In this document: in pieces, positions 5,911-57,500 of the stretch | Position numbering within the stretch: position 1 is the first letter of the stretch | How the letters are laid out: each line of letters starts with the position of its first letter | DNA from: a virus | Taxonomy: Duplodnaviria > Caudoviricetes | Direction: 5' to 3' (one strand) | Virus record (IMG/VR): IMGVR_UViG_3300020048_000007 | Location: 167,673-231,672 of that record | DNA length: 64,000 nucleotides | Program-made: the position numbers and the translations under genes | Notes under the pieces: model-generated | Told to the model about the DNA's origin: nothing | Database searches by the model: none | What the model saw: only the letters and a program-made list of their open reading frames with translations

Positions 5911-6449
5911 GATGAACTAGACCAGGATGATTCAACAGGTACGTTTTGTTTAGAAACCCAGTAATGATATCTATCTTGACAAATACTTATTTCAAGGTCT
6001 CTAGAAGATGCTTCGACTGAAGCATTCTTCCTAAAATCAACTCCACCACAAACGCACACATTCTTAGAAATGCTATTTCTCCCACATTTTAAGCACACAT
6101 ATGGCTGTTTAGACATATTTACAGAAACTTTCCCGAAGACAGCATAATAATAAGCATCTGACAACACAAGATCTACACCTGTTAAACCACAAAAATGCTT
6201 CACAATGCCAGTCCTATTGTTCATACTAGAAGTATAAACATTAACGACTTCATCAGAAACACTTTCATAGCATGCGGCACAAAAGTCAAATGACTTCTCC
6301 GGTTTTTGCTGCAGTATATCTGTTATAGGTGGTCTCCTACCGCCATACTGCTTTACCTTCATCACATTCACACTATAATAATCAAAGTCTTCCTTATTCG
6401 TCGCTTTGCATATATCACATATTATTCCGGTTTGATCTTGCGTTTGCAT
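5907..6449 (-). CDS. Cys-rich hypothetical protein
   Basis: CDIC, CAAC, CLKC and CVCGG motifs; same operon as the DnaE C-terminal gene. Confidence 0.7.
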   Translation of the reverse strand: MQTQDQTGIICDICKATNKEDFDYYSVNVMKVKQYGGRRPPITDILQQKPEKSFDFCAACYESVSDEVVNVYTSSMNNRTGIVKHFCGLTGVDLVLSDAYYYAVFGKVSVNMSKQPYVCLKCGRNSISKNVCVCGGVDFRKNASVEASSRDLEISICQDRYHYWVSKQNVPVESSWSSSS

Positions 6450-9141
6450 CGGACTTTCTCTTAAGTTTCGATATCTTCTGACGTCTACTTACACAAAACA
6501 TACCCCTAGCATCGAAATCAACAGGAATATGAATTCCAATGCCAGGTTCAAAACACGCCTCATCCTGCATCATTAATTCCTTCTCCCATACAAACACCAT
6601 ACAATCAGCAATCCCATCAGTACCAAAAATCTTACCATAAGGTTTACCTGTCTTAGTCATATCCCTAACGAATTTGCTTGTATACAAATGTAAAAAATTG
6701 TTTCCTTCCTCCTTAGAAGCGCGATCCTTAGAAGCAGCTATGGTTCCATCACCGGTTATCTTATAAGAACCAAGCGGAGAATCAAGGTAATACCCAATAT
6801 ACTCCTGCTGGAAAGCTAATCTTTCTTCTAAAGTAAAATCGTCTAAAGTCACTTTATTAATATTTTCTAAAGTTACTTCGATTTTCGGCATCCATTTCGT
6901 TATCGCTGGTGGGATCTTATTACGTTTAGGATAGGCGCGGCGATACTCTTGCTCTTGGCGATCACGCTCCTTGGCAATCGTCTTCTCATCCCATCCTTCT
7001 AGAGCCATAAGGTCATTGTGAAGTTGCACTTTCATCTCTCTAATGTCTTTATTCACAGAGCAGTAAAAATACTGATAATACTTCCATAAAGCACGGCTGT
7101 TCTGATGTCCAGGCAATTGCTGGAAAGCATTTAACTTGATAAATCTTTCCAAAACAGGTTTACTCCTCCGGCCAGAATCTTCACCACCGACAAATTCATC
7201 AAGCGATTTATAATCACCCTTTCCAGTAAAAACCAAAGCGGCTGAATCACCAATGCCTTTAATACCAATCATGCCCTGATTAATACTGTCGCCAGATACC
7301 TTGAATCCACGCTGAAGATTATTTATATCAATAGTACCGAAGTGAACACCCTCGGCTGGAATGGCTGGTTTATGGCTCCCACTGTATGTGATTACCGACG
7401 GCTTCCATTCTTCAGACCTAGCCATGCCCATATATCTAGGCAACTTCTTGGCGTGGCAATCACTCATAATAGCAGCCCAAAACTCAGGTGCAAAGTGCGC
7501 CTTCAACCACAAGCATCTCATAGTCAGCAGGCAGTAACTCACACTATGTGATTTATTAAATGCATACCTGCCGAATGTTTCCATCTTCTCCCACCAGTAC
7601 GCAGCAGCTTCCTCACCAATAGACTTACCAGCACCTTCAAGCCATTTGGTCTTAATCGGCTTTAATTTGTGTGTCCACTTCTTAGCCACGGCCTTCCGAG
7701 CATCCTGTGATTCAGGACTAGTGAAAGCAGCAAGCCTCTGCCATAGTGCCTGTAACTGTTCTTGGTAAACAATAACCCCATAGGTGGACTCAAGAACAGA
7801 TAAAAACTCTGGGTGCAACTTCTCTTTCCATTTATTAAGACTATCATCGCGGTTAGCCATAGCCTCAGGAATTGATTGCATAGGACCTGGGTGGCCCATG
7901 GCATTTAAAAGCATTAAGTCTTCGAAAGACTTCACACCATGTTCTAAGATCCCTTTGCCATTATCTGTATCAAATTGAAATATGCCATCAGTCTTCTTAT
8001 CGTTCGCAAGCTTCAAAGCTGCTGGATCATCCATGTTTATAAAATGTTTTTCCCCGCTCTGATCGAAATAAAAGCCGATTATCCTTTGCTCTGGATCATT
8101 ATAATCCATTCCCTCCAGATTATCACCAAACGAAATCCCGCGATTTTCTTCGATAAACTTGCATGCCTCGAATAGGTACTTCACAGTCTTTAAACCAAGT
8201 AGATCCCATTTGACATAACCGAATTTGCTCAGCTGAGTGGTTCTTCCCTCGGTCCACATGCTTACCCAAAAGCCCTTCTTACCACTTTTCGCCATTGGAA
8301 CGTTCCCAAACAATGGCCTGTCAGTAATAATCAGAGCTCCCGCGTGCATCCCCTGATTCCTAATGCGGCCAACTAGCTGCTTGGCGTAGTCAACGACATT
8401 CGGGTGTATACGATATAATTCAGCAAGCTCTTTTACTTCTGCTAAGAGCTTACCAATGGTCGGGGCCTCAGTATCTGTCTGATTACAAAAAGGGCATATT
8501 TTCGCATCATGCACCTTTCCGCAATCTTGTTCAGCCCCTTCAATGATGATTCTACTTTTACAAACGGAAAACCCGCCTTCTCTCAGATCGTCGACTTCAT
8601 CAGGCATCTCAGTGGTGAAACGCTCTGCCTCATATCGTGTCATAACACCAAGTGCCGTAGACACGTCTAAAATCGCACTTCTTAACTTGTAGGTCTGCCA
8701 GGTCCCAACAGAGCAAACACTGCCATAAACATCATCGACGTTACTCCCATAACGCTGAATCGCATATTCCTTCAAAGGATCTCTAGATTCTGGGATACAA
8801 TCGATATCGATATCTGGCATGTCAGTATCTTTAGTGATATCTTCAGGATAATACCCATACTTGTTCTTGTAACTCATAACACTAGAAGCCGCAATGGAAT
8901 TAAGCATCGGCGTGGTCCGCTCATAGAACGGATCATCATCAGAAACACCCAACAGATACGCTATGAGAAGCCTATTTGGGTTTTTAAGCCCCTTTTGATC
9001 AGATTCAGCAACACGTATCCAGTATGCTTCTGTACCCTGTTTTTCAATCTCTGATATTTCAAACATCAATCTATCAACATACGTGCTGCCTAATGCTTTA
9101 CCTTTAGGTATTAACGTTTCTTTCATATCATTCCAGGTCAT
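6415..9141 (-). CDS. dnaE: DNA polymerase III alpha (family C), C-terminal/catalytic fragment
   Basis: MPDIDID catalytic motif, GRIRNQGMHAGALII, KWDLLGL, GIFQFD, TYGVIVYQEQ, ARKAVAKK, FGRYAFNKSHSVSY, FAPEFWAAIM, GIKGIG and an OB-fold remnant (QQEYIGYYL...GKPYGKIFG). No PHP domain. Confidence 0.95.
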   Translation of the reverse strand: MTWNDMKETLIPKGKALGSTYVDRLMFEISEIEKQGTEAYWIRVAESDQKGLKNPNRLLIAYLLGVSDDDPFYERTTPMLNSIAASSVMSYKNKYGYYPEDITKDTDMPDIDIDCIPESRDPLKEYAIQRYGSNVDDVYGSVCSVGTWQTYKLRSAILDVSTALGVMTRYEAERFTTEMPDEVDDLREGGFSVCKSRIIIEGAEQDCGKVHDAKICPFCNQTDTEAPTIGKLLAEVKELAELYRIHPNVVDYAKQLVGRIRNQGMHAGALIITDRPLFGNVPMAKSGKKGFWVSMWTEGRTTQLSKFGYVKWDLLGLKTVKYLFEACKFIEENRGISFGDNLEGMDYNDPEQRIIGFYFDQSGEKHFINMDDPAALKLANDKKTDGIFQFDTDNGKGILEHGVKSFEDLMLLNAMGHPGPMQSIPEAMANRDDSLNKWKEKLHPEFLSVLESTYGVIVYQEQLQALWQRLAAFTSPESQDARKAVAKKWTHKLKPIKTKWLEGAGKSIGEEAAAYWWEKMETFGRYAFNKSHSVSYCLLTMRCLWLKAHFAPEFWAAIMSDCHAKKLPRYMGMARSEEWKPSVITYSGSHKPAIPAEGVHFGTIDINNLQRGFKVSGDSINQGMIGIKGIGDSAALVFTGKGDYKSLDEFVGGEDSGRRSKPVLERFIKLNAFQQLPGHQNSRALWKYYQYFYCSVNKDIREMKVQLHNDLMALEGWDEKTIAKERDRQEQEYRRAYPKRNKIPPAITKWMPKIEVTLENINKVTLDDFTLEERLAFQQEYIGYYLDSPLGSYKITGDGTIAASKDRASKEEGNNFLHLYTSKFVRDMTKTGKPYGKIFGTDGIADCMVFVWEKELMMQDEACFEPGIGIHIPVDFDARGMFCVSRRQKISKLKRKSDANARSNRNNM

Positions 9142-10672: not shown

Positions 10673-12067
10673 TCACTTAAATTCGGGTAGTTTTACATTC
10701 AGCAAATAGCCACCACGACTCGGACTCAAGAATCTGTCGAATGACAAACCCCATTTAAGCGGGTCAATGCTAGAGATTCCAAGCAGATAGCAAACCAAAC
10801 TCCCTGGAGCACTACCACGAGGATAAAACGGAAATCCTAGAGACCTCCCATGATCTATTAGGTCATATGTTATTAAAAAATAACTGCTAAAACCCTTCTC
10901 GATGAACCGAGTAAGTTCTATTCTGGCTTGCTCTGCATACGTCACAAGCTTGCCATCAACCGGGAACTTAGTCTTCACCTTATCTAAACCAAGTTCTTTG
11001 AGTCTCTTCGTCGCAATACGAATCAATTCTTGGTCTGACTGATCGACAGACGGAATCTTGGGCGTGGAGTCTACATTTAATTTAGAACATCTATTAGCGA
11101 TTTCTAGAGTATTATCACAAGCTTTCTGGAAAAACCCATCATCGATACCTTTGCTATAGCCATTATCAGTAAATCTCTCATGTAATTCCTCTCGGGTCTT
11201 CATGTACTGCTCATCACTATTAACGTGAAAAAGATCAGGGCTATCAACGGTTGTCTCCTGTGAAATAGCCATCATGATCTTCTGTAATATAAAATCCTTG
11301 CGGTGCATATAATGACAATCATTCGTGATCACCGACGGTACCTTGTAATGATCAGCAAGTTCAACCTGCCACCGAAAGACCTTCTCATCATTCTCGACCC
11401 CAGGCATTTGTAACTCCATAAAATAATCTTCGCCAAATGCGTCTTTGAATTTTTTTATATAAGCTGCGGCATCCCTAAAACACTCCTTAGAGCTTCTCTC
11501 CCAGACCACATTGTCCTCTTTATCCTTAATACTTCTGAATCTAAGCTCATGACTAACTGGTCCGTTTAAGCATCCAGAAAGAATGATTAATCCCTCTTTG
11601 TACTCACAAAGCTTCTCAAACCATATCCTGTTATACTGTGTAGTACCAAGTCCGAACAATCCTGTATCATAAGCCTGAGTAGTGAGCTTTATAAGGTTCT
11701 CGACACCAGTCTGATTCTTACATACGACAGTTAAATGCCTGTTCCGGAACATCCTTGCAGCGAGCTCTTGATTTTCTTTGCGCCATTCTGGAGATCGATA
11801 TTTAACACCATCCGCGTGCATTTTCTGTCTTAGCGGCTCATAATCATTATAATATATCTCACAACCGACTATACTCTTTAGACCGTATTGTTGAAACGCG
11901 ATGTACATGTCAGGGACACTACCCATATGACCATGCTCCGTAGCAGCCATAGCCGGATATCCAAGATTATGACACCTCTCGGCATATTGCTGCGGAGACG
12001 ATACCCCATCAAGAAAGCTGAAAATAGTATGAGCATGGAGATGGACAAAAGGAGCGTGCGATTGCAT
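10673..12067 (-). CDS. dnaE: DNA polymerase III alpha, N-terminal fragment (PHP domain + start of palm)
   Basis: FVHLHAHTIFSFLDG, ATEHGHM, IVGCEIY, RHLTV, LSGCLNG, TNDCHY and SDEQYMKT, then RGSAPGSLVCYLLGIS.IDP and FDRFLSPSR. It ends just before the PDxDxD motif, which is in the other gene. Confidence 0.95.
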   Translation of the reverse strand: MQSHAPFVHLHAHTIFSFLDGVSSPQQYAERCHNLGYPAMAATEHGHMGSVPDMYIAFQQYGLKSIVGCEIYYNDYEPLRQKMHADGVKYRSPEWRKENQELAARMFRNRHLTVVCKNQTGVENLIKLTTQAYDTGLFGLGTTQYNRIWFEKLCEYKEGLIILSGCLNGPVSHELRFRSIKDKEDNVVWERSSKECFRDAAAYIKKFKDAFGEDYFMELQMPGVENDEKVFRWQVELADHYKVPSVITNDCHYMHRKDFILQKIMMAISQETTVDSPDLFHVNSDEQYMKTREELHERFTDNGYSKGIDDGFFQKACDNTLEIANRCSKLNVDSTPKIPSVDQSDQELIRIATKRLKELGLDKVKTKFPVDGKLVTYAEQARIELTRFIEKGFSSYFLITYDLIDHGRSLGFPFYPRGSAPGSLVCYLLGISSIDPLKWGLSFDRFLSPSRGGYLLNVKLPEFK

Positions 12068-42792: not shown

Positions 42793-43554
42793 ATGGCTCA
42801 GTATTGCGACACGAAGAAACTCGAAAAGGTCTGGTTTAACTGGCTTCTATCCAAATCAGCACCCACGCTGGAGCCATACAGGAAAGCGGGTGTGTTGTGG
42901 ACTAAAGCCATAGGTCTCGTCGATGTGAAGGGTGAGGTGATTGTCAAAGGTGGTAAGACCTTCAAAAGTCCTACACATCCTATCAGATCGCACTGTATCT
43001 TGTCAAGATATCCGTTCTTTTTTACCACTTTTAATGGTAAGCCACAAGAACTTGCGTCCCAAATACATTATAACGAACATGGTGATTATACGACAACCCC
43101 CATTGCACTTTCAGAGATAGAAATAGTAAAAACCAAGCCGGAAATAAAAGACATAGAACAGATACTACTAAAAGATGGCTACATCCTAGATGCAGAAACA
43201 GGAAAAAGCTGGGAGTCCATGTTAATAGACATCAATAAAATGTGCCTCGGAATAGCATCTAAATTTCATCAAAAAACAGCAGAAGAATTGAATGATTTAG
43301 CTAACGAAGCATTATTGCAAGTAGCTAACAAATTATCTACAGATAGGCTGGTATATACTCCCGGAAGGGCACCAGTATTCAATTTATTAACCACCACTAT
43401 ACATCGATGCATGTTTTCAATTATGAATAAAAGGAAAAATCAAAGAGAAGGGCTTAACAGATTACTGCAAGACGCACAATCTGGGTCATTACCTCAAACT
43501 AACAGAAGCCTGAGACTCCAAACATTCACGACGAGAAAACATGAAAATCGTTAG
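42793..43554 (+). CDS. T4 gp55-like (late) sigma factor
   Basis: QYCDTKKL at the N-terminus and DLANEALLQV...YTPGRAPVFNLLTTTIHRCMFSIMNKRKNQ, paralleling gp55 region 2 (F.YFTQI...AF...I.KEK). No region 4. Confidence 0.6.
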   Translation: MAQYCDTKKLEKVWFNWLLSKSAPTLEPYRKAGVLWTKAIGLVDVKGEVIVKGGKTFKSPTHPIRSHCILSRYPFFFTTFNGKPQELASQIHYNEHGDYTTTPIALSEIEIVKTKPEIKDIEQILLKDGYILDAETGKSWESMLIDINKMCLGIASKFHQKTAEELNDLANEALLQVANKLSTDRLVYTPGRAPVFNLLTTTIHRCMFSIMNKRKNQREGLNRLLQDAQSGSLPQTNRSLRLQTFTTRKHENR

Positions 43555-44482
43555 TAACAAACACATTGTGCCAGCGGTAACAAAAAAACCAATTGACAAT
43601 ATCAAAATAGTAGTTAGTCCCCATAATAAAACTATAAGCACACTAAATGCTTATAATCAATCAGCCCATTTGAAAGTAATCCCAGCACAAATAGCACCGC
43701 AGATAAAAAACAAAGCAGTCATAGATAAAAGCCTAGTAAAAAGAACTCAAAACCCAAATAAACCAAAACCACCAGCATCGGTAACTTACGCTTCCGGCGA
43801 AGCACCAATCGAAAGCATACCCAAAATATACGGTATTAAAGACATAGGTAAAGGTAAGACATTAGTAGTCATAGCAAACGGTCCAAGTATAAACGAAATT
43901 GAATTGGAGAGACTAAAAGATAAGCCAGGCATCGATACCCTATCAATAAACAGACCGGACCCACGGGTCTGGCCAACAACATATTGGTCATTTTACGACC
44001 AATCACAGCTTGTGCGACACGAAGACCTGTATAATTATTATGAAGGCATCACCTTTCTTAGCACAGCCATCAAGAGAGACAAGGCCAGAAGCATAAAGTT
44101 CAAAAATTTTGGCAAAAAACAATTTAGCAGAGACTTAACAAAGGGATTATGTATAGGACGCACTAGCTGTTATGCTGCTATGCAACTTGCTTTATGGATG
44201 GATTACGATAAGATATTCTTCTTTGGGGTTGATATGCACCCAGATGGTATTGACGGTAAGCTCCATTTCTACGGGACAAATCCCGACGTAGACCCTGATA
44301 TTAGGAAAAAACGATTTAACTCAGAAGCAGAATACTTCGAATTTGCCGCAGATAACATGGAATACCAAGAGAGAAAGAGATTTCACTTTTGTTCGTCTTA
44401 CCTGACATGGCCCTTTAAATCGCGTTTCAATTACTTAGATCACAAGACTGCTATAGACGTGATTTTAGGGTCAATGCTATGA
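43541..44482 (+). CDS. DUF115/Maf-like glycosyltransferase-related protein
   Basis: LVVIANGPSI, TLSINR and AMQLALWMDYDKIFFFGVDM after a low-complexity N-terminus. Confidence 0.7.
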   Translation: MKIVSNKHIVPAVTKKPIDNIKIVVSPHNKTISTLNAYNQSAHLKVIPAQIAPQIKNKAVIDKSLVKRTQNPNKPKPPASVTYASGEAPIESIPKIYGIKDIGKGKTLVVIANGPSINEIELERLKDKPGIDTLSINRPDPRVWPTTYWSFYDQSQLVRHEDLYNYYEGITFLSTAIKRDKARSIKFKNFGKKQFSRDLTKGLCIGRTSCYAAMQLALWMDYDKIFFFGVDMHPDGIDGKLHFYGTNPDVDPDIRKKRFNSEAEYFEFAADNMEYQERKRFHFCSSYLTWPFKSRFNYLDHKTAIDVILGSML

Positions 44483-44490
44483 TTTGACTA

Positions 44491-44877
44491 ATGTATTATA
44501 AAACCATGAGATACTACATAGCATCTAGTTTAGACAATGTTGCCAATGTTCGTAACGCCATTATGAGGTTGACCGAAGCTGGGTTTAGTGTCACACATGA
44601 TTGGACAAGACACGGCAGGATCACAGACCCATCACAGTATCAAGCCATTGGCGAAGCGGAATATCAAGGCGTGATTGATGCAGATTTCATCGTGTTCTTT
44701 ATGCCGACTAGGTATGGAAGCCACGTTGAATTCGGTATAGCACTAGCCTCTAACAAACCGATTTATATGATCACGAACGGCGTGGAATTTGAAGAAAAAA
44801 CATTCTATCATCTACCATCCGTACATAGATACAGCGATTTAAATGAACTATTGCGCGAATGGGGAATAGACATATGA
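44491..44877 (+). CDS. nucleoside 2-deoxyribosyltransferase / nucleotide N-hydrolase-like protein
   Basis: YYIAS, DW, GVIDADFIV and GSHVEFG.ALA..KPIY (catalytic Glu motif). Confidence 0.8.
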   Translation: MYYKTMRYYIASSLDNVANVRNAIMRLTEAGFSVTHDWTRHGRITDPSQYQAIGEAEYQGVIDADFIVFFMPTRYGSHVEFGIALASNKPIYMITNGVEFEEKTFYHLPSVHRYSDLNELLREWGIDI

Positions 44878-45578
44878 GTGGAAGCGTATCAACTAAGCTC
44901 GAATTAGACGTAATGCAAGTCAATGAATTGCTTGAAGCAAGCGAGCTAATGTCTCAACATACGCTACCAGCCATGGTTATACATCCTGGCTTGGCCCCAG
45001 ACGCTTACGCAGCACGGATGAGAGTCAGAGGCAGGTACAAAATAATCATCCCTATTGATTGGCCAAAAGGCGAAAATTTTTCAAACTTGAAATTCAGGGG
45101 ACTGAGTAAGCAAGCATTGGAAGCTGATGGGTTCGAGATAATGGTCACGCCAGGTAAGACCCTTCTAGATACAAAAAATGAAATCAATGTTCTGACTGAA
45201 TTCATCAGGAACTTTCTGGGGGAATATGTGGAGGTTCGGTTTGTAATAGGCAATACTATTAAAACCGACGAGGAAATTGAAGTAATATGCAATGCCTTGT
45301 TAGGTATGAGGAACCCCACATTGTTGCGTAGCGATACTATCTTGAAAGTACAGCAAAATGTCATCAGTTCAGAGTCGCATCTAGCTTTTGTTAATAAGCT
45401 ACGCGGCTTTGGTCTTCCCACACCTATAAAGCTATCGGGGAATATGAATAACCTTAAATCTATCGCTTCAGCGCCAGCAGTTTTCAGGTATGCTGTCAAT
45501 GTCACACAAGCCAAGAATATTATTCGAGAGATCTTGCAGCAGCCCAGTGAATTGAAGGAAATCCTGTCCGACGTTTGA
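44859..45578 (+). CDS. DeoC (deoxyribose-phosphate aldolase)-like TIM barrel, catalytic Lys apparently replaced
   Basis: IDWPKG, ADGFEIMV, VRFVI, LLRSDT and IKLSGN align in order with DeoC (GFPLG, GADEIDMV, VKVII, FVKTST, VKASGG); Arg sits at the Schiff-base Lys position. Confidence 0.5.
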   Translation: MGNRHMSGSVSTKLELDVMQVNELLEASELMSQHTLPAMVIHPGLAPDAYAARMRVRGRYKIIIPIDWPKGENFSNLKFRGLSKQALEADGFEIMVTPGKTLLDTKNEINVLTEFIRNFLGEYVEVRFVIGNTIKTDEEIEVICNALLGMRNPTLLRSDTILKVQQNVISSESHLAFVNKLRGFGLPTPIKLSGNMNNLKSIASAPAVFRYAVNVTQAKNIIREILQQPSELKEILSDV

Positions 45579-45588
45579 GAATGACAAT

Positions 45589-45978
45589 ATGATACACGAT
45601 CATCTAATGGAAGCAATCAGGCAAGACGCCGACCTATTGACTAAATCCGATGCGTGGCTCGAAGAAGAGAAGAATTACTTCACAGAGCAGATGCGCAAAT
45701 CCATAGAAGAGCTCAAACCCATCCTCTTAGCTATAGCTATAAAACAGAAATTGCAGCAGCAGAACATGGTGCCTAGGCAGAAGTTCATAAGAGGCAGCAC
45801 AGGCCAGATAGAGAACGTTGTGATTGACTTCTGTAAGCTACCAGAAGCACTGAGAGATATGCTCAATAACGGCAGAGATACCTTAGATCAGTTGATAGCA
45901 GCTGGCAATATTGCCACATGGCAAATAGACGGGTATGACGTTAATACCTGCCTCCAAACGGTACCGAAAGGGATATAA
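45589..45978 (+). CDS. hypothetical protein
   Basis: 129 aa; TAATG stop/start overlap with the PurZ-like gene. Confidence 0.7.
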   Translation: MIHDHLMEAIRQDADLLTKSDAWLEEEKNYFTEQMRKSIEELKPILLAIAIKQKLQQQNMVPRQKFIRGSTGQIENVVIDFCKLPEALRDMLNNGRDTLDQLIAAGNIATWQIDGYDVNTCLQTVPKGI

Positions 45979-47078
45979 TGCAAAACGGCAAGCTCAATAT
46001 AGTCACAGACGGACAACACGGTAGCACAGGCAAGGGTCTAATCAACGCATATCTAGCCGATAAACACCGACCAGAAATACTCAGCACGACCAATATGGCC
46101 AACGCTGGCCACACCGCAGTCAACGAAAACGGCGAACCGTTCATAGCAAAAGCATTACCGTCATCAGCGGTCCTAAACAAATGGCGAGAGGGCTATAAAC
46201 CGACAGTATTCGTAGGAGCTTCATCTGCTTTTGATCTGCAACAGCTACTAAAAGAATGGAAAGAATGCGACAAGCCATTCACATTAATCCACCAGAGAGC
46301 TGGTGTCATTACACAAGAGCAAAAAGAAAGAGAATCCGGAGCATCAGGCACAAAGCACGTTGCTAGCACCATGCAAGGATGTGGAGCATTTCTAGCAGAT
46401 AAAGTCATGCGAAAAGCAGATTTAAAACTCGCTAGAGATTATGAAGAGCTTCAGCAATTCATGGCCATCAAAGAAGCACATACATGGCTAAAGGCACAGC
46501 TCGAAAGCTACGGTACAATTCTCCATGAAGGAAGCCAAGGATTCAGCTTAGATATAAGCCACGGTAGTCACTATCCAGAGTGTACAAGCCGCAGCACCAC
46601 TGCTATTCAAAACCTTGCTGATCTTGGTCTTAACCACAAGCAAGTTGGTGATGTGTACGTGGTTTTCCGGCCATACCCGATCAGAGTCGGCAATGTCTAT
46701 GAAAATGGGGTAGAAGTAGGCAACAGCGGTGGTTGCTACGGCGACAACCAAGAGACTACTTGGGAAGCAATAGCCGATGCTGCAGGTGCACCGCCAGAGA
46801 TTAAAGCCAAGGAGCTTACAACTGTCACAAAGCGACTTCGAAGGGTCTTCACGTTTAGTATGCAGCAAATCACCGAAGCTGCTGCAGCTAACGGTGCATC
46901 ATATCTTGCGCTGAATTTTGCTAACTATATTGACTGGACTTGCTATGGCACCAACGACAAGGCAAAATTGTCAAGCAAGATTTGGGAATTCATTCATTCA
47001 GTACAAGAGCAAACAGGCGTCAAGGTGGGGCTTGTTGGTACGGGTCCTCAGATAAACCACGTAATTGACCTAAGATGA
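45978..47078 (+). CDS. purZ: adenylosuccinate synthetase homologue with PurZ (2-amino-dAMP-succinate synthase) signatures
   Basis: DGQHGSTGKG (Ser at the PurA Asp13 position), NAGHT, ASTMQGCG, EGSQG, YPECTSR, RPYPIRVGN, SGGCY, TTVTKRLRRVFTFS and LNFANY (in place of the PurA TKLD/TMLD GTP-specificity motif). Confidence 0.8.
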   Translation: MQNGKLNIVTDGQHGSTGKGLINAYLADKHRPEILSTTNMANAGHTAVNENGEPFIAKALPSSAVLNKWREGYKPTVFVGASSAFDLQQLLKEWKECDKPFTLIHQRAGVITQEQKERESGASGTKHVASTMQGCGAFLADKVMRKADLKLARDYEELQQFMAIKEAHTWLKAQLESYGTILHEGSQGFSLDISHGSHYPECTSRSTTAIQNLADLGLNHKQVGDVYVVFRPYPIRVGNVYENGVEVGNSGGCYGDNQETTWEAIADAAGAPPEIKAKELTTVTKRLRRVFTFSMQQITEAAAANGASYLALNFANYIDWTCYGTNDKAKLSSKIWEFIHSVQEQTGVKVGLVGTGPQINHVIDLR

Positions 47079-47854
47079 TCAACCTATTCAAAGTCGCAAT
47101 TTACACAGACGAAGCGGGGTCTACCCTCGCTTCGTCTAAGAGTATTATATCAGAATTGAATATTCCAAATGTTATTTTTAGAAACGTAGACAATAGGAAT
47201 ATCCTAAAATATGACGAAACTCGTATAAAAGCTGTCCTCAAAGAGTTTGAGGATTTTACCGTAGCTGGTCTGTCGACAGATATCAGAATAGATGATATGT
47301 TGTCAGATGATCAGATTTTCGATTTACGGAAGAAGATTTACCTGATAAGACCAGTTTTTGTCAGATTCGGGTGGTCTGGAGAGAAATACTCTACGGAATT
47401 TATTGCTAGGATAATAGATATGAGTATAGAGAGCAATTTTATACCGGTTATTGAGTATGAGCATACGCATTTTAATTCTCCCAAAATCATAAAGGCACAG
47501 GACTGGGTCAGCCTTTTGTCATTATCGAAGCGATTGAGAGTGAATTTTGATCCTGTTCAGTATCTTATGCGGGTAAGAACTGATCCTATAGAGACGGTTT
47601 ATGTTCCGCTTAGGAATCAGGTGAGCGTTATCGATGTTAGAGATTATAAGATTGGCGTTGGGGCTAAGACGATTGGTTACGGGTCTATTGATTGGGCTGC
47701 GTTGTTAAAGAGACTATATTCCGATAAATATAACGGTTGGTTGGCTATTAAGCCGTCTCTGGGTATCATGCATGGTGATACTCTTGGTAGAGAGATGGTT
47801 TTTTCCCATGCTTTCAGCAATTTCAAAGAAACATTGGAGGAAGCGTGTCAATAA
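47075..47854 (+). CDS. sugar-phosphate isomerase/AP-endonuclease-2-like TIM barrel (degenerate metal site)
   Basis: IYTDE, FRNVDNRNI, RVNFDP and IDVRD...GYGSIDW...Y.GWLAIKP; ATGA overlap with purZ. Confidence 0.65.
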   Translation: MINLFKVAIYTDEAGSTLASSKSIISELNIPNVIFRNVDNRNILKYDETRIKAVLKEFEDFTVAGLSTDIRIDDMLSDDQIFDLRKKIYLIRPVFVRFGWSGEKYSTEFIARIIDMSIESNFIPVIEYEHTHFNSPKIIKAQDWVSLLSLSKRLRVNFDPVQYLMRVRTDPIETVYVPLRNQVSVIDVRDYKIGVGAKTIGYGSIDWAALLKRLYSDKYNGWLAIKPSLGIMHGDTLGREMVFSHAFSNFKETLEEACQ

Positions 47855-48064: not shown

Positions 48065-48487
48065 ATGGCTGGCTCAGACGTATTCGAAGTCGCGCGCTAC
48101 AAAATCGGAGATGTGGCGTGGTGGGTGAATTTAACAGCCAAGGATGACCCACAAGAAGTCCCTGAAAAAGACGAATGGATGAAAAAACATCATCCTAAAG
48201 TCTTATTCGAACGCGGTTTATACAAGTCTCTGTGGAAGACGACAGCTGCTTTGCCTAAATTAGAGAAGACGGATTTTCTCAGTATAATGCATATATTGAC
48301 GTGTGAGATGAAAATAAGCGAATTCATCGTCTCAAGTATCGCAAGAAGCAACGATACCGGCGAATTCTTTTATTCTAATTTAAACACCGAATGGCTTCCA
48401 GAGTCCAGCATGTTTGACACTAAAGAGGCAGCTGCAAAGGAAAGAAAAAGGATCATAGGGTTGGTGAAAAAATGGTGTGATTCTTAA
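48065..48487 (+). CDS. hypothetical protein
   Basis: 140 aa; N-terminal YKIGDVAW resembles the YNPGDVVY of ORF 848..1162. Confidence 0.7.
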   Translation: MAGSDVFEVARYKIGDVAWWVNLTAKDDPQEVPEKDEWMKKHHPKVLFERGLYKSLWKTTAALPKLEKTDFLSIMHILTCEMKISEFIVSSIARSNDTGEFFYSNLNTEWLPESSMFDTKEAAAKERKRIIGLVKKWCDS

Positions 48488-48524: not shown

Positions 48525-51500
48525 ATGGCAACAGATCCGTTTGCGAATATAGGTTTTAGGGAAAACTTCTCCCAAGCTTACTACACAGAAATAATTATAG
48601 CTAGGAATAAAAAAAGCATAAGATTTGCTTCTTCCACTCCTACAGTAACCAACAGCTACCGTCAACTGATGGGTGGTAATTTATACAGAGTAGCGGAGTT
48701 ACTAAGTATAACAGGACCAAAACAGCCCGTAGCCATAGAAAACAAACTACAATATAAAAAAGACCAACCATATTCCCTCTACGATCAAGGCCAAATAAGC
48801 GACGAATTCAGAATACAGAACGTCGACCCTACCCTCTCGTTAGAAAACAGAGAAAGCTACTGGGCTAGAGTGAGCAGCCCATTAGGGAGAGAGTGGGCTG
48901 CCTACTACGCCGGAACAGATGCCAAAATAGGCTACATCGCGAATTTTATTGACAGAAATTTAGATGACTTCACGGGCACGAATTTTGCAGGATTTGTATC
49001 TGGAACACTTAATAATGACAACGATAAGCCCAACCTATATGACACTGTTAAGATAGGAAACATATTCGGCTCCACAGTTCAAGGAAGCCAAACTGCATCT
49101 GTGTCTGTTGAGCCAGGCATGTACAAGAGCTTCATCTCGTGCAAAGTCACACAAGACACGAGATATTTTGACCCCACAGGCGCAGAAATAATTCAAACTG
49201 CTGAATCAGGTGATTTATTCGCCGACGAGTTCGTGTTAAACTTTTATATATTCCCAGGTTATCACACATTTTATTATGGCTCTTGGAAGATAACAATCGA
49301 GCCGACTAATACGACAGGAACGCATAGGGTATTCATCCAGCATGCCAGATATTATGCCTCTGCTGAATACAATATGCAGCCAATAGTGAGGAAATTTAGT
49401 GCAGACTTTGATTGGGATGGGACTTTAAGCGAGTTTAATCTTATTACTATTAAATACCTATTCACTCCAAGACCTCAGGGGAGTGCGTCGACTGGCACAA
49501 TTAACATTGGTACTTCTACTAGTAAAGTAAGTCTATTTGTTAATGCTGTTCCTGTCTTCGCAAGTGGTAGTGATTCGATATGGCCCCCATCTTATCCAAA
49601 AGTCTACCGTGGCTCAAGCGGTGCGGGATTGCCTAGTTATACACAGAAACCATATATTGACCTAAAGATGGCCCCAGATAACACGCCTGTCTTCATAGTA
49701 TGGGATAATGCAGTACCTTTCGGAATCACAAAAAGCGAATTCGCATTTATTCTTATAACTGACAAGCTGGTGGATCTTAAAGGTCTTTACACTCACCTTA
49801 TTAGATTCGAAAGGATAATGCCTAATCTCACAATTGAGACGACCCCTAACCCAGTTGTTCCTCCAACACCCCCAGTAGGCGGTATTACTTCGAAATTTTA
49901 CAACAGGGCTACTTATAGTCTTGCCCCAGCGGTATTGATGGAATTAAACAAGATACTCTTAGACTTCATGCTGTCCCAGCCAAATATTAGAATCTCTAGC
50001 GGACCACTAGAATCAGACCCGATTCTCAATAGGATGATGGCTACTGCAAGTACCACCAAAAAATATTCGTCAGCGATAGAATACGACAAAAACGTTTTAG
50101 ATCTCTTAAGAGAGCCAATTTTGGTTATAGATGATACGAATTCGCTATTGCCATATTATTTGCTAGAGTATGGGTTACCTAATGAGAACGTCGGGCGACT
50201 TCGAGTTAGAATAACAGAGATAAAATCACCAAATGTAATCGATGAAGTATCATCAGAAATTGAACTACAGGGCTACGCAGAGTACATTGTTAAAACCATT
50301 ACCACAGACAGCTGGACAGCTGGCACGGTGACGTTGTCTTCGATTTTTAGATTCTTGGTCGATGATAGTGGAATGTACGAGCCAAAATTAGATCCGTATG
50401 TCGTCAACAATCCTAATCAGCTTAGTCTTAATGAGTTTGGACAAGTATATGTTGAGAGTATGCGTGTTACTTGGGCTTTTCCAAGGGACGTGAACAGTCC
50501 TTTTGTTATTCCAGATAGCTTTTTTACTAGGTATAACAGGGTGGTGGATGTAGTAACCCAGGAAGTAGAAATAGCACAGCTCTTTGATACGGAGAGAGAC
50601 TTATTACCAAATGGGTTGCCGGTCGATCTGAATATGTCTAATAAGCCGGGCACGACCCCTCCAATATCACCACCTAACCCTGGAACAACTCCAACACTAT
50701 ATTATAATCGAGCTGAATGGAGCATACTGCCTGCTAAGGTAGCGGAAATAGAAGAGGTCATCAAAGATTTTATGACCAGTAGAGAAGTTATTAAATCGGC
50801 TGGGGAAGATTTTTATTTGGTGATGCAGAACGCCCTGTTGACCGATAATAGAGTGGTCAAGACATTCGAACTTGGTATAGGGATTGATCCGCACTCAGAA
50901 GAAGGAATCCTTGATGTAGTCGACACTCCTCTTGCCACTAGCACAGATGTAGAAATATTCTATACACCAAAGGATGCACTTGGAATTCCAAACAGCAAAG
51001 ATTATGCGATAAGGTTATCCGCCAAAATACCATTAAATGAACCTAACAGGAATCTTTCTGAAGTAGTCTTAAAAAGCTCTGCTACATATCGTTTTGATAT
51101 ACCATCTAATTTTGACAATCCAGATGGTGATTTGTCTGAATATGGTGCTGGGCAATTTAATATTACCCTTGATTTTCTTATTATTCAGAATGATGTTGCG
51201 AGACCAATTAATAGTGATAAAAACCCGTATATCGTCGGTAACAATGGTGAATTCGAACTTGACTCAGCTTACAGAATGGGTGCAGTGACCGCGACTGTTG
51301 TTGCTACTTTCGGTTCTGATACTGGTTTCTTTGAGGACTATCTATTAGATTATAATCCAATTGAAAGCAATCAGTTCGGGGCTGGAACTTTAGTGGACAT
51401 AACGCCCTTCATTACTGGTGGCGTTCCAGTTTCCATAAATATGTCAAATGCTCCAGGCACAGTTGGAATTGGTGTGCCAGGCGGCACGCCGTTACCACCA

Positions 51501-54500
51501 TCTGGTGGGTCATTATCACCATCCAAGAATTATACCGCAACATTCACCCTGGCAGACCAGCCATTTAAAATATTCGAGATAGACAATTTAAAAGGGCTGT
51601 TAAATTTTTACAGTTTCCAAGACATTCTAAACTACACATTATATGATCTTCTTCTAACCCAATATTCTCAGAAAGTACCCATTTCGAGATACGCGTCTGA
51701 CGTTTTCAAGCTAGCCCTAATCGAACAGGGTAAGATACCTGGACACCCATCAGATCAGACCGCAGGATTTTTAAAAGCGTATACTGCCTATTTTAATGAC
51801 CAGGATTGTGTGTTACCGGAAGGCAGTCCGCTAGACCCCTCTTGCCAGGCATTGACCATTGAGTATATCATAGCACCTAAAGAGACGAATAAGGTATTAA
51901 CATTAGGCACAAATCTCCTGAAAATGGGCATGGTTATTAATCTAGGGTGTAATGGTGGTGCCAATTGCGTTGTTGTTGGCGGCAAACAGATTCCTAGAGT
52001 GAATGGTGTGCCTACGGCCCAGTTAAGTTATGATTTTACCATGGAGATGATAGTAACAGAAGACACATCAGGTGTGACGCCACCGACGAGTCCAAGTATA
52101 ATCGTGACATATAATCTTTCAGGGCCCATAGCGCTCTGGGGTTTTTTAATAGGACAATACTCTCTTATTAATGTTTCTAGATACACTGGTGGTGCATACA
52201 ATAAAGTCATAGCGTATGATGAAGCGACTATGAAATCAGGCACAAATTTTCTAGTAAAAGCTTTCGGCACCGATTCACCACTATATGAAGCCGGTAACAT
52301 AGCGCCAATTAAATTGTCTGCTAGAGGGCAGAGGCTTTGGGGTTCCGATCCGGACGATTTTACTAATGACTACACACAAATCGACTTTTTTGTGACAGCT
52401 TACATAGACACAAGATTTACAAAAACACTAACTGGCTCGTTAATTAGTGACCTAGATGCTCCCAACACAACACGAGCAGCAATAGTTTATGTGATAGAGC
52501 CTGTAACCGTACCATTTCCAAGATTCGACGGCACGATAGTTCCCTCTAAAAAATTACCAACAGTTACCTATACTGATTACACGAATGTATTAATGACCAA
52601 GCGTTTTCCCTCTGACGGCGGAGACGGCGGAGACGGCGGAGACGGCGGAGACGGCGGAGGCGCGACGGTCAAGAAGTACAACGGCAAATGGAATTTAGGC
52701 CCAGATTTCATAAGAGCAATAGAAAACACATACATCGAATTTCTGCAAGTACCCACATTTAATTGGCGATTTGACAATGTGGCGTCAAAGGGCTTAGGAA
52801 GCTATGATAAGCTTTTGTGGGAATTAGTAAGTGGAGGTGTCAATCCAATCGTCAATAACTGGCAGACTGCCGGATACCCAACTGGAGTTGGTCTGCAAAG
52901 ACCAATAGACTCTAGATCAGTCCAATATTGGATGGAAGACGTATTAAAATACAACGGCGTCGGAACCGGACCGACCGGAGCACCAGTCACACTAGCTTAC
53001 TCATCCAGCTTCCAAGGATCTAATTTAAAATTAACAGTTTATATGAATATAGCAGTTAGAGACATAAGATTAGAAGCTGAAAAGTCAACTAGTGTAACAT
53101 TGGACATCTCTAACATATATGGCGAGGTGTCTGAAGGTGGAATAAATAAAACCTATCTGTTTGCGAATAGAAGTACTTCATTTACCATATCTGTAGACGT
53201 ATACGAAGCGATGCAAACATTCAGCGCTCCGCAAGAAATGATGCTCGCACAGACAGTTCCCGACAGTTACATCTGGCAACCACCCAAATACATTATAGTC
53301 AACAGTGACAGCCTCAAATACAATGATGGCCTAAACGACGTATATTACTTCAGAGACGGCTACCAAACCGCTCTAAGACAGACCTACTCATTCGTTGGGA
53401 CAAGAACATCACAAAACGACGTAATAGCAACATATAGGCACGGCGATGCCAGCTCATACGACCCAGAAACTACAAACTACGACGTAGTGGTTGGCGGTTT
53501 CGACTTGGTATACCATAAAGGCACACCCAACACTCTAACGTTACTACCGATCGAAATAATAGAGTCTAAAACCAAAAAGAAATTTGTGTGCTTCGGCAGC
53601 ATCAGAGAAGTAGGAAATATATTAAACGCCTCAATAAAATCAAACGTTGTGATGACATTCATAACAGATAACGGATCGACATCCGACACAGACGGAGCAT
53701 ACTGGGTATACGACAATACCTGGAAAGAGTGGTCACATACAATTCCGATCAATACCGGCGACGAGCTTAACTTATACTGCTACAGCTGCCTCACTAATCA
53801 GGTTGGAACACTAGAAACCAATATCAATATAATCACCAAATTCAACGTTAAACCAACTCCCAATAACCCACCGCCATCAGTAGATCCCACCGAAATATTC
53901 CCAGCAGAATTTTCTTACGACCAACTAATCCAAAAAGTACCGGCACTACCAGTTGTATACCCCCCAGGCTTCCCAAATCCATCAGTATATCGGTTTGAAT
54001 ACCCTAAAACGATGGCAGTAAAGGCCAAAAGCTCAACAGATACATATGAGTTCTTTCTAGAATCTATTGACAGCACACAACGCATTGCTACTTATAAGCT
54101 GTATGAATTCGTGAATAACGAACTGACGGTAGGTGGTTTCACTGTAGAGTACACGCCACACGTATCATTCAAGCTAAGTAAAGTAGACGTGTACTCAGCA
54201 GATTTAGATAGAGATTTCGAATGCTTTGGAATAATTCACATAATCTATGACAATGACGGTGCCTTATTGTCGGCTGATACATGGGAAATAATACCCACAT
54301 TTGAAGACCCTAATGATTTCGCTAACTGGTACTTGACTGTCGTACAAGACCCGTTGACTGGTGGTAACCATTTTAACACCTATTGCAACGATGGTACGAA
54401 TTTTAAATGCTCAGCAAATAACTTGAAATTCGTGATGCGTATAGACGCGAATTTTAAGCATTATGCTCCAGAGCCTCCAGCAATCATTGTCGCTCCTCCC

Positions 54501-57500
54501 GTATCAGGTCCGCCAATACCATTGCCCATATACAGCACCGGTTATAACGTTGCTTCAGACAGGCAGATTGCATTCATTGGTGAGCCTGATAGTAACTGGA
54601 AAATCACCAGTTTCATTACGGGTCCAGAAGCTGCTCCTACGCATTATTGGAAACTAAACAATGGCTTAACTGATAGTGTGGGTAGTCTACCATTTATAGC
54701 ACATCCGGCTATGCTAATTGTACAGGGAGCAAACAGGGTACGATTCGGACGCATTGCTGATTTTACTTACAAGGTAGGTGCTGTTTGGTCTAATATACAG
54801 ACGCAAACGACATCTGAGAATGCTATTTATCCTAATAACCCTGGAATAGTTAGCGGCACTACAACATTAGGGAAAGGAATAGAACACGGTTTATATGCTT
54901 ATGTGGCTTCACAGACCTCTAACCGAATTTTAGATTCAAATGCTTGGACGATTACTGGATGGCTAAAAATGCCAATTGCGCCATATGTTTCAAATTATGG
55001 CTCTAGTATACCTGAAGAAATGGTATTTAGTATCTCCCCATTCACACCATTACCGCTTCAGCCCCCATCAGTCACCAGTTCATATGTTTTTGGTCCTGAA
55101 CTCATTGTCGATAGTGCCTCCAGAATATCAGTTTATGTGAATTATGCTTTTAGAGACACTACACCTTTTGAATCGTACCCGTATGGCGAGAAATTCCCTA
55201 AGAAAGCTGGCCATATATATGTTTATTTTAAATCAACCCGCACCAGCGAACCGACCTTCGCAGGAAAAGAGACTGGGCTAAATGCAGTATTAGTAGATGA
55301 AGCTGGTGACCTCATCTATAGGGATTTATTAACAGGAGACATAACGTCTGAAGGGGGCATTACATCAAGGTCCTGTAATTTCCTTGAGATACCTGGACCA
55401 GATTTAATAAGAGCGAATGTCTGGTCATTCATATCAATAAAAAAACAAGAAGCATTCAATGACAGGCTGGTAATAAGCATAAATGGCCGAGATTACACAG
55501 CAATATTTCAGTCTGCTATCGTCACAGATGAGCTGTTAAAGAAAATCAATTTCATTCAAGCCATGGCTCCGCTCGACGATTTAAGAACATACGACTCAGA
55601 GCTCTCAGACTTAGAATTAAAACTGATATCGCGAGTCGGCAGCGCAGAAGGAGGGGTAGTTCCACGAGAATATAGCCCCGGTGGAGTGGTATCAGGGGTC
55701 ATATCAAACCAAGTTTTCGCTTACGACCACTTCAACCCTTCAGAAGAGATCCAGCCATACTGGTGGCCAGCCGGATATACTTATGATAACACCATCGTGC
55801 CAGATCGCACAAATCTCTACCAACAATACAATGCTAGATGGGTGTCGCCACCGCCTAAGCTGGGCATTGACGCATCACCAGTAGCTAAATCCTTCCATTA
55901 TGCCACCGAATTTGATCTTACAGGCATAACTCTCAATACAGTCAAGATATCGTTCCTATGCTCTGGTGATGATAGAATAATTGATATAATTGTTAACGGC
56001 ACGAGCACAGGCTATAATAACATCTCAGAGATCGGCGGGCTGCCAGCTACCAACACAACAGCATATGATAACTTGAGATATAGGAACCTCTGGGACGTAA
56101 AGCTACCGACCGGTAGTGGTCATCTCTTCGTTCAAACAATTAATACGATCGATATAGTGGTAGAGAATCAAGCTATCACAGATCTGTCAGTGGCTACCAA
56201 CCCAACTGGGTTATACGTGTACGTTTACGAGAAAACCGGTGTTCCATTACCTATACTGGAAGACCCAAGAGCAATCATTTTAGACATAGTCGATACTGGC
56301 CACAATAAGATATTGAATCAACCAATACCTATAGGTTCGTCAGATAGCAATTGGGTGATAGAGAAAGTAGAAAGACCAGAAATCGCTCCTTCTCACTATT
56401 GGAAGTTTAATAATAGCCTAAATGATCTTGCTCCAGCTGTTGGCTCAACACCATTACCATTTGTGCAATACCTGGTACAGTCTACTTTTAAAGCTGGTGT
56501 GGTAGTCGGTAATGCTGGAAATCCGCAAAACACCGGGGTAGTTCAGAACGCAATATTTCCTTTTATTCCTGGTTCACCAACATCTGAATATGGCAAGCAC
56601 ATCCTTGTTATATCTGAAGGAGGTACAAATAGTAAGCTCATTAATTCATCAGTAGGCTGGACGATTACCGGCTGGATTAAAATACCATTATACGATGGGT
56701 CCATACCGTCACTCGCGGAATTAACAACAATATCTGCTATTTCTCTTAACGTCTTTGCTGCAAATACGCCAACCATGAAGTTTAAGTTTTGTTACTTTGG
56801 TGCTGGTAATAGAAAAACAGGAGCTCTCTATTTAGACTTTACTTATGGCGAATTGGATAGTGGCAGTGCTATGACAATACCTGACCAATCCACCAACTTC
56901 ATCGAGATAATACCGAATCAAGGGGCGTTCTCTCAGAACGAATGGGTATTCTTTTCAATACGCAGAACTCCACGGACTACCGCTCCTTCTGGAGCTATAT
57001 CTGATGGCACAATAATATTAACAATCAACGGTATTGATTACACTATAAAAGAACCATATATCCCAGGAGCCAGCTCGACTTTCGACACTATGAGCTGGAT
57101 TGATTTTAGCTGCCCCGCAGATGATTTGAGAATATACGGAAATAAGGTACTGTCTAACTCTGAACTTAAATTCATTTCCAAATACGATTTCACATCAATC
57201 ATACCAGGCGAAAATGACCACGCCACCGCAGTCGGCGTACCAAGAGAATACCTGAACACATACATTACCGCGCCTTCCCCCGTCTTCGCCTACGATTACG
57301 TGAACCAATATAGCCCAGCACAACCATACTGGTGGCCACAAGCAGTTCCCAACCAAGCCTCACTCTACGGAGAATACAAAGCACGATGGGTATCGCCACC
57401 ATCAACCACAGGTATCAACATAAGCAGACTAGAAAACACAGGATTCCACTATTACAAAACAACATTTAACCTAGCCAATATCGACCTAGAAACAGTAAAA

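Follow-up and report, generated by a model that had tools for sequence, protein, structure and literature searches.

The stretch of DNA analysed here, referred to as the window, comprises the final 64 kb (64,000 nucleotides) of a 231,672-bp virus contig in IMG/VR (record IMGVR_UViG_3300020048_000007; CheckV completeness 64%), and the gene with which we are concerned is the following:

45978..47078, plus strand: purZ-type gene, 366 aa, homologue of succino-amino-deoxyadenylate synthase (ATG start; assigned from Pfam, PHROG, NCBIfam, signature residues and tree)

A preliminary description had seen in this gene a PurZ-signature enzyme of a jumbo phage, and had proposed that the phage makes the deoxynucleotide of 2-aminoadenine (Z) to replace some or all of the adenine in its DNA, or puts Z nucleotides to some other use. 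Genes for a large terminase, portal, tape measure and baseplate hub are present in the record, as is one for a ribonucleotide reductase (RNR), and the presence of the first four on a contig of this length justifies the label of jumbo phage. The gene belongs to a jumbo-phage PurZ clade with a non-canonical set of partner genes.

The motif strings quoted in the preliminary description are all present in the open reading frame (ORF): GQHGSTGKG (residues 12-20), RPYPIRV, SGGCY, TTVTKRLRRVFTFS and LNFANY (residues 311-316), and the C-terminus of the protein ends in GLVGTGPQINHVIDLR. The product is matched by the Pfam adenylosuccinate synthetase family (PF00709, E 3.4e-29); its best PHROG match is the PurZ model, PHROG 1211, the phrog holding phage PurZ (E 2.6e-61), and its best NCBIfam model is the PurZ model NF038379 (235.9 bits, E 5.4e-70). 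Given these E-values, the motif match is not a chance occurrence, and judged by its sequence the ORF is an adenylosuccinate-synthetase homologue of the PurZ type. The best PurZ match among cultured phages is that of Bacillus phage vB_BpsS-140, at 39.7% identity.

Some of these scores speak against a PurZ activity. The curated cut-off of NF038379 is 300, which the 235.9 bits do not reach; NF003295, the model of archaeal-type PurA, is close behind with 212.9 bits (cut-off 368, likewise not reached); and in a PDB sequence search the PurA of Pyrococcus horikoshii scores as high as the PurZ structures, with 150 bits compared to 142 for S-2L PurZ and 142 for phiVC8 PurZ. The control, Vibrio phage H2 PurZ, annotated as a relative of phage VP5 PurZ, reaches 396 bits on NF038379. 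The protein is much less like PurZ0 and long bacterial PurA, which score 72 bits (7VF6) and no more than about 50 bits, respectively. Together with a C-terminus that aligns with archaeal PurA, the low PurZ score and the top rank of the P. horikoshii enzyme are what one would see if the protein were a divergent short archaeal-type PurA, making adenylosuccinate from IMP and boosting the AMP/ATP supply during infection. However, the archaeal PurA model falls below its own cut-off too (213 bits), and the residues and trees described in the following paragraphs make this explanation very improbable.

The residues that discriminate the PurZ of dZ-modified contigs from PurA were taken from the metaGPA preprint (bioRxiv 10.1101/2025.10.22.683976), and the protein was aligned residue by residue with Vibrio phage H2 PurZ, whose numbering is that of the VpPurZ residues in the preprint. 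S16, within GQHGSTGKG, stands where PurA has the catalytic Asp13, and LNFANY occupies the position of the GTP-specificity motif (TKLD in Escherichia coli PurA, TMLD in Thermococci PurA), with F313 and Y316 aligned to VpPurZ F295 and Y298. In addition to these two, VpPurZ S14, P233, Y244, W252 and T262 are kept; S273 is conservatively exchanged for Thr, and I34 is replaced by Ser. The exchange of VpPurZ F12 for His (Trp in most close relatives) is a further point on the unfavourable side. The PurZ-specific loop SGxCYxD..E.TW is present with its Tyr and Trp kept, and the catalytic residues of adenylosuccinate synthetases, His45, Gln187 and the Arg pair R288/R289 in TTVTKRLRR, are invariant across 34 relatives. 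From a library of 1.8 billion proteins clustered at 50% identity, we also took the 150 best-matching representatives and aligned them with four reference phage enzymes: Ser is found at the Asp13 position in every alignable sequence among these 150 nearest representatives and GDEGKG in none, and the pattern [LIV][NT]F..[YQH] stands at the TKLD position in nearly all of them. Both the Ser, in the enzyme as well as in its nearest relatives, and the NFANY in place of the GTP motif argue against a short PurA.

In four homologues of about 750-1200 aa (P0133, P0137, P0146 and P0173), we observed intein-like insertions of 370-410 aa within YP.C|TSR, with junctions that resemble ...HYPQ|C... and ...HN|CTSR. 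The corresponding site in the present enzyme, which itself has no insertion, is YPECTSR at residues 200-204 (window about 46578-46590); inteins within the YP.CTSR motif mark it as a functionally important site.

A phylogeny with PurA, PurZ0 and PurZ, the check put forward in the preliminary description, was carried out as a quick tree of 102 rows and a careful tree of 61 rows (IQ-TREE, LG+C20; support given as ultrafast bootstrap/SH-aLRT), with E. coli PurA, Thermococci short PurA, and archaeal and bacterial long PurA, all taken from named genomes, as outgroups. In both trees, long PurA is set apart from the short enzymes (100/100). Thermococci PurA, with its GDEGKG, is the sister of a group in which all members carry the Ser (100/99), and our enzyme lies inside this group and outside PurA, a separation that again counts against a short PurA. 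The earliest branches of the all-Ser group are PurZ0 of phage Ghobes and two other lineages; a crown clade (99/98) then unites the verified PurZ lineage (Vibrio phage H2, SH-Ab 15497), the vB_BpsS-140 lineage and the clade of our phage. The latter is supported at 100/100, and all of its members whose contigs were examined lie on contigs of 150-436 kb.

It had been proposed that the resemblance of the C-terminus to short archaeal PurA might point to an early-branching PurZ. The resemblance itself is borne out, as the PurA of Thermococci and of P. horikoshii can be aligned over the last 50 residues, whereas the tails of phiVC8 and SH-Ab PurZ diverge. This C-terminus is found throughout the jumbo clade as well as in vB_BpsS-140, and an ancestral trait that has been retained is a better explanation for it than early branching. 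The placement in the crown clade does not support an early-branching PurZ; a tree constrained to have our clade branch before all other Ser-type enzymes was 28.5 log-likelihood units worse, though the rejection is only marginal (approximately unbiased (AU) test, p = 0.043). From the tree placement and the constraint test we conclude that the enzyme is neither a PurA nor, within the limits of this marginal rejection, an early-branching form. The reading as a PurZ-signature enzyme thus stands on the Ser at the Asp13 position, the NF..Y at the TKLD position, the SGxCYxD..E.TW loop and the placement in the all-Ser group. These are observations; the substrates we infer from them, and we consider it quite probable that the enzyme is a true dGMP-using PurZ.

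Near-identical DNA is found, in each case as assembled contigs, in freshwater metagenomes of at least 14 studies besides the one from which the record probably stems. A word-index search returned 2,224 PurZ relatives at E <= 1e-10, with more than 120 at 55-96% identity and many on contigs of 150-408 kb. A scan of IMG/VR confirmed 462 relatives, of which 80 loci were kept for locus comparisons; the records of these include one of 355,825 bp with direct terminal repeats (100% complete), one of 408,349 bp (100%), one of 354,091 bp (98%), and others, some of 370-436 kb. When the purZ gene and its surroundings (24 kb) were compared by megablast to 50,697 phage records, no match was obtained. The remark in the preliminary description that known Z-genome phages are much smaller agrees with what we found: the jumbo records in the curated phage collection yielded no PurZ-type gene, our literature searches returned no paper in which PurZ or aminoadenine is linked to jumbo or huge phages, and a survey of 147 phage PurZ sequences (NAR 2026) does not mention jumbo phages. 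The sole jumbo match in the curated collection, a gene at 343850-347575 of LR756503.1 (a 735 kb uncultured huge phage), was ruled out as PurZ, being of the long PurA type and grouping with cellular long PurA in the trees.

The purZ gene lies in a block with the following genes:

43541..44482, plus strand: MptE-like/WaaZ-like gene, 313 aa, head of the block (weak TIGR04437/PF27901 match; in 20 related loci)
44491..44877, plus strand: N-glycosidase/transferase-like gene of the nucleoside deoxyribosyltransferase (NDT) superfamily, 128 aa, candidate DmtZ analogue (PF05014 E 1.7e-5, below cut-off; fold)
44859..45578, plus strand: TIM barrel with the fold of deoxyribose-5-phosphate aldolase (DERA), 239 aa, or 234 aa from the second Met (AlphaFold2 and Foldseek)
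45589..45978, plus strand: conserved 129-aa gene directly upstream of purZ (same position in 10 related loci)
47075..47854, plus strand: xylose-isomerase-like/sugar-phosphate isomerase-epimerase-like TIM barrel, 259 aa (PF01261 E 7.4e-7, just below cut-off)
48065..48487, plus strand: conserved 140-aa gene of the same block (homologues in 15 related loci)

The gene order is MptE-like, NDT-like, DERA-fold, 129-aa ORF, purZ, xylose-isomerase-like TIM barrel, 71-aa ORF, 140-aa ORF and a 4,606-aa ORF. The block genes abut or overlap at their ends; at 45978, the start of purZ overlaps with the stop codon of the gene before it, and purZ shares 4 nt with the next gene (47075-47078). These overlaps on both sides of purZ indicate an operon, conserved and by all appearances translationally coupled. 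The block recurs in about 20 related loci, and even in a locus whose PurZ is 37% identical (L057) its upstream part is retained through purZ. The label of the MptE-like protein is a lead only, with Atlas matches at 0.92 to MptE-like clusters, and the block genes of 129, 140, 253 and 429 aa had no match in PHROG, NCBIfam or Pfam. Directly downstream of the block lies the giant ORF of 4,606 aa (window 48525-62345, plus strand). ORFs of 1,600-1,980 aa or more, reaching the ends of their loci, occupy the same position in five related loci (L009, L011, L018, L021, L050), and BLASTP detected no similarity between these and the first 3,000 aa of the giant ORF.

The conservation of the operon and the folds of its proteins are observed; the roles that we ascribe to the neighbours of purZ are predictions. 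The NDT-like gene lies one or two genes upstream of purZ in 15 related loci. Its product is modelled by AlphaFold2 with a predicted local distance difference test (pLDDT) score of 95, and its top Foldseek matches are the CMP N-glycosidases BcmB and MilB, nucleoside deoxyribosyltransferases, and DNPH1. Residues Y9, E57 and E80 are invariant in 12 homologues and form an intact triad; similarity to the DmtZ of Ghobes is marginal (E 0.07). NDT-like enzymes have been tied experimentally to Z phages in the form of DmtZ (PMC12884076) and NDT-M2 (metaGPA preprint), and by analogy we regard this protein as a candidate dAMP-removing enzyme, a putative analogue of DmtZ.

The 239-aa protein folds in the AlphaFold2 model as a (beta/alpha)8 barrel (pLDDT 87, predicted template modelling (pTM) score 0.85), and its top 50 PDB structure matches are all DERA (template modelling scores of 0.7-0.8, E 2e-12); it has no Pfam (DeoC included) or NCBIfam match. 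Alignment by hhalign with a DERA profile built from the E. coli and three archaeal enzymes places an invariant R157 at the Schiff-base K167, and K191 at K201. The replacement of the Schiff-base Lys by Arg makes canonical aldolase chemistry doubtful, and we regard the protein as a predicted deoxyribose-5-phosphate-binding enzyme whose reaction may differ from that of a canonical aldolase. The isomerase-like gene is found downstream of purZ in 13 related loci, and its product has Atlas feature matches at 0.95 to sugar phosphate isomerase/epimerase clusters; a PDB sequence search with this 259-aa protein gave only noise.

Such neighbours open a further possibility, namely that ribo-GMP or some other guanine nucleotide is the substrate of the enzyme and that the operon builds or recycles a modified purine or sugar metabolite instead of serving Z-DNA. 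The sugar-phosphate-type enzymes around purZ (their functions being predicted only), the lost Schiff-base Lys of the DERA-fold protein, the His at the F12 position and the lack of all canonical Z-pathway partners, to which we turn below, would fit with this. Yet those residues through which PurZ makes contact with the 2-amino group and with the base of ATP are kept, NDT-superfamily enzymes beside PurZ have a demonstrated role in dA depletion, and the literature searches gave no precedent for such an operon; we therefore hold this explanation to be improbable.

The favoured interpretation, set out further below, is that a functional PurZ feeds Z into the phage DNA. Against it weighs the absence of the partners expected of a Z pathway. 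The search of the remaining genome for datZ and mazZ, advised in the preliminary description, was negative: neither a DatZ-type protein (PF12917, PF13023 and PF01966, i.e. YfbR-like, HD_3 and generic HD) nor MazG was found in the 231 kb record, and tblastn with two DpoZ proteins found no DpoZ, the replicase being a split DnaE. DUF550 was not found in any genome searched, controls included, and this search, lacking a positive control, is thus uninformative. As the record is about 64% complete, the partner searches were extended to relatives. The three closest complete or near-complete ones (G001, G002 and G005; 354-408 kb) also lack DatZ-type proteins and MazG; one of them (G002) carries a single generic HD-domain ORF. 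DatZ of the YfbR-like or HD_3 type has no match in our genome or in the relatives G001-G007, its matches being confined to G008-G013, and the single MazG match among our genome and its relatives is in G006. When the cluster proteins of SH-Ab 15497, Vibrio H2, Ghobes and vB_BpsS-140 were used in tblastn and phmmer searches, only PurZ and a dUTPase were matched in our genome; gp51 and gp52 of Ghobes have no Pfam match and no relatives in it. Two more points fall on the same side: the phage RNR implies that dADP and dATP are still made, with no dATPase identified, and the step of sugar disposal is uncertain for a DERA-fold protein that lacks the Schiff-base Lys.

The dUTPase in question is fused to an N-terminal thymidylate kinase in a single 372-aa protein encoded outside the window (genome C1:20528-21646; locus L249:2528-3643). 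Its Dut domain passes the cut-off of the canonical dUTPase model and so is not obviously a DutZ, which is likewise unfavourable. A NUDIX hydrolase (genome C1:10837-11052), kept across the clade of our phage (relatives G001, G002, G003 and G005), could be a dNTP pyrophosphatase that substitutes for MazZ.

The G008-G013 genomes form a sister jumbo clade (loci L039, L044, L046, L049, L085 and L040), comprising five complete genomes with terminal repeats (362-436 kb) and one 308 kb fragment, with PurZ proteins 39-43% identical to ours. All six carry a YfbR-like HD (DatZ-like) protein and three of the six a PurB-like lyase, these genes being scattered far from purZ, and none has an NDT-family gene. 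That PurZ is combined with a DatZ-like protein, and in part with PurB, in this sister clade counts in favour of the Z pathway. In the clade of our phage and in G006 and G007, the NDT-family gene is present and the YfbR-like gene absent, so that NDT-like and DatZ-like HD genes are mutually exclusive among the jumbo relatives. Because this complementarity amounts to about two independent lineages, it is suggestive only, and this limits the support that it can lend. Elsewhere among the relatives, a 254 kb genome (G014, locus L066) has a PurZ of the classical clade together with a dGTP_diPhyd_N (DUF5664) gene.

The replicase of the phage is a split DnaE and not a DpoZ-type PolA, encoded in the window as two halves:

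10673..12067, minus strand: DnaE N-terminal half (PHP and start of the Pol III alpha core), 464 aa (Pfam PHP 2.2e-34, DNA_pol3_alpha 5.1e-21)
6415..9141, minus strand: DnaE C-terminal half (Pol III alpha core, fingers, HhH), 908 aa (DNA_pol3_finger 1.7e-27, DNA_pol3_alpha 3.4e-21)

Since each half has a match to the start of the Pol III alpha model, that segment is duplicated, and identity of the DnaE to cultured phages is at most 26%. Three small genes lie between the halves, one of them with a C2H2 zinc-finger match. The window also contains an SbcC-like nuclease subunit (34506-36290, plus strand; PHROG 77, E 2.5e-77) and, 20 kb away from it, a calcineurin-like phosphoesterase that is possibly SbcD-like (13942-15030, plus strand).

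These observations bring up the possibility that PurZ is active and the substitution only partial, or that the Z deoxynucleotides serve otherwise, for example in poisoning host replication or repair or in evading a nucleotide-sensing or nucleotide-depleting defence, with the DNA keeping much or all of its adenine. The missing DatZ, MazZ and DpoZ, an RNR that keeps making dADP and a Dut domain that appears canonical would all be in line with this, and we know of no Z preference in DnaE-type replicases. However, the PurZ phages tested so far all have Z in their DNA (PMC12884076; metaGPA preprint), and in the metaGPA preprint 28 of 29 PurZ-type genes were on dZ-modified contigs. Moreover, one gene of the operon is NDT-like, and in other Z phages genes of this kind serve to deplete dA nucleotides. 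We thus consider a partial or non-DNA use of Z unlikely, though less so than the ribo-GMP explanation.

Based on the sequence evidence, we cautiously favour the view that a functional PurZ feeds Z into the phage DNA and that dAMP is cleared by the operon around purZ. PurZ would condense dGMP and aspartate, with ATP or dATP as phosphate donor, to N6-succino-2-amino-dAMP. Since no PurB is encoded in the lineage of our phage, we propose that host PurB, followed by host or phage kinases, would complete the route to dZTP, as host PurB and kinases do in other Z phages (PMC12884076). The split DnaE polymerase would then incorporate Z when copying the phage DNA, at some or all of the adenine positions. 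The removal of dA nucleotides would proceed through the purZ operon and not through DatZ: the NDT-superfamily enzyme may cleave dAMP, released when host DNA is broken down or when a dATP pyrophosphatase, for which the conserved NUDIX protein is a candidate, acts on dATP, to adenine and deoxyribose-5-phosphate, and the DERA-fold and isomerase-like TIM barrels may bind or dispose of the sugar phosphate. The presence of Z in virion DNA, which we infer, seems to us somewhat more probable than its absence. A complete replacement of adenine by Z appears rather doubtful, and less certain than the preliminary description implied. Finally, we speculate that a large and globally distributed clade of freshwater jumbo phages of 230-440 kb copies Z-DNA with a DnaE-type replicase, and that, by a route not described before, an N-glycosidase, a neofunctionalised DERA-fold protein and an isomerase-like enzyme destroy dAMP and its deoxyribose-5-phosphate, replacing DatZ, MazZ and DpoZ entirely; in this full form, we regard the proposal as somewhat unlikely.

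If Z is confirmed, a PurZ lineage on contigs of 150-436 kb would enlarge the largest known Z genomes several-fold. If the favoured interpretation is true, a C-family (DnaE) replicase would be able to copy ZTGC DNA, and the operon would point to a third solution for excluding adenine from DNA. The DERA-fold protein with its Arg and the isomerase-like protein that accompanies it offer concrete leads to new nucleotide-sugar chemistry. For surveys the consequence is more immediate: the curated PurZ model misses the clade of our phage (236 bits compared to a cut-off of 300), and Z-phage surveys that rely on NF038379 therefore undercount jumbo phages.

To our knowledge, the Z-genome phages characterised to date are all about 40-70 kb in genome size and rely on DatZ or DutZ/DmtZ, usually with a dedicated PolA or PrimPol. 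With the verified PurZ enzymes, the present one shares the fold, GSTGKG, the SGxCYxD..E.TW loop, TTVTK..RR, the NF..Y for ATP and the crown clade, but identity is only 33-35%, its C-terminal 50 residues are like those of archaeal PurA, and F12 is His; the systems differ further in that DatZ, MazZ/DUF550 and DpoZ were not found in our phage, the genome is larger by a factor of 5-10, and a split DnaE serves as the replicase. Short archaeal PurA (P. horikoshii 5K7X/2D7U; NF003295) is similar in length and has a like C-terminal segment, ...GTGP...H.ID.R, but carries GDEGKG and TMLD and lacks the PurZ loop, in contrast to the GSTGKG and NFAN of our enzyme. The DERA-fold protein likewise resembles DeoC/DERA in its N-terminal DERA-like motifs and in the kept equivalent of K201 (K191), but differs in the invariant R157 at E. 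coli K167. With regard to the PurZ0-type system (PurZ0, DutZ and DmtZ), our synthetase is not a PurZ0 (72 bits to 7VF6, against 142 to PurZ), the latter branching earlier and outside the crown clade in the form of Ghobes PurZ0; there is no adjacent DutZ, the sole Dut domain being the one with a canonical score that is fused to thymidylate kinase; and DERA-fold and isomerase-like genes have not been described for PurZ0 phages. Nonetheless, both systems are without DatZ, and both have, encoded near the synthetase, a protein of the NDT superfamily with a Tyr/acid/Glu triad. The neighbours reported for DmtZ (DNPH1, MilB and NDTs) are the same as those of the NDT-like protein, and the Tyr, Asp-or-Asn and Glu of the DmtZ triad are matched in it by Y9, E57 and E80.

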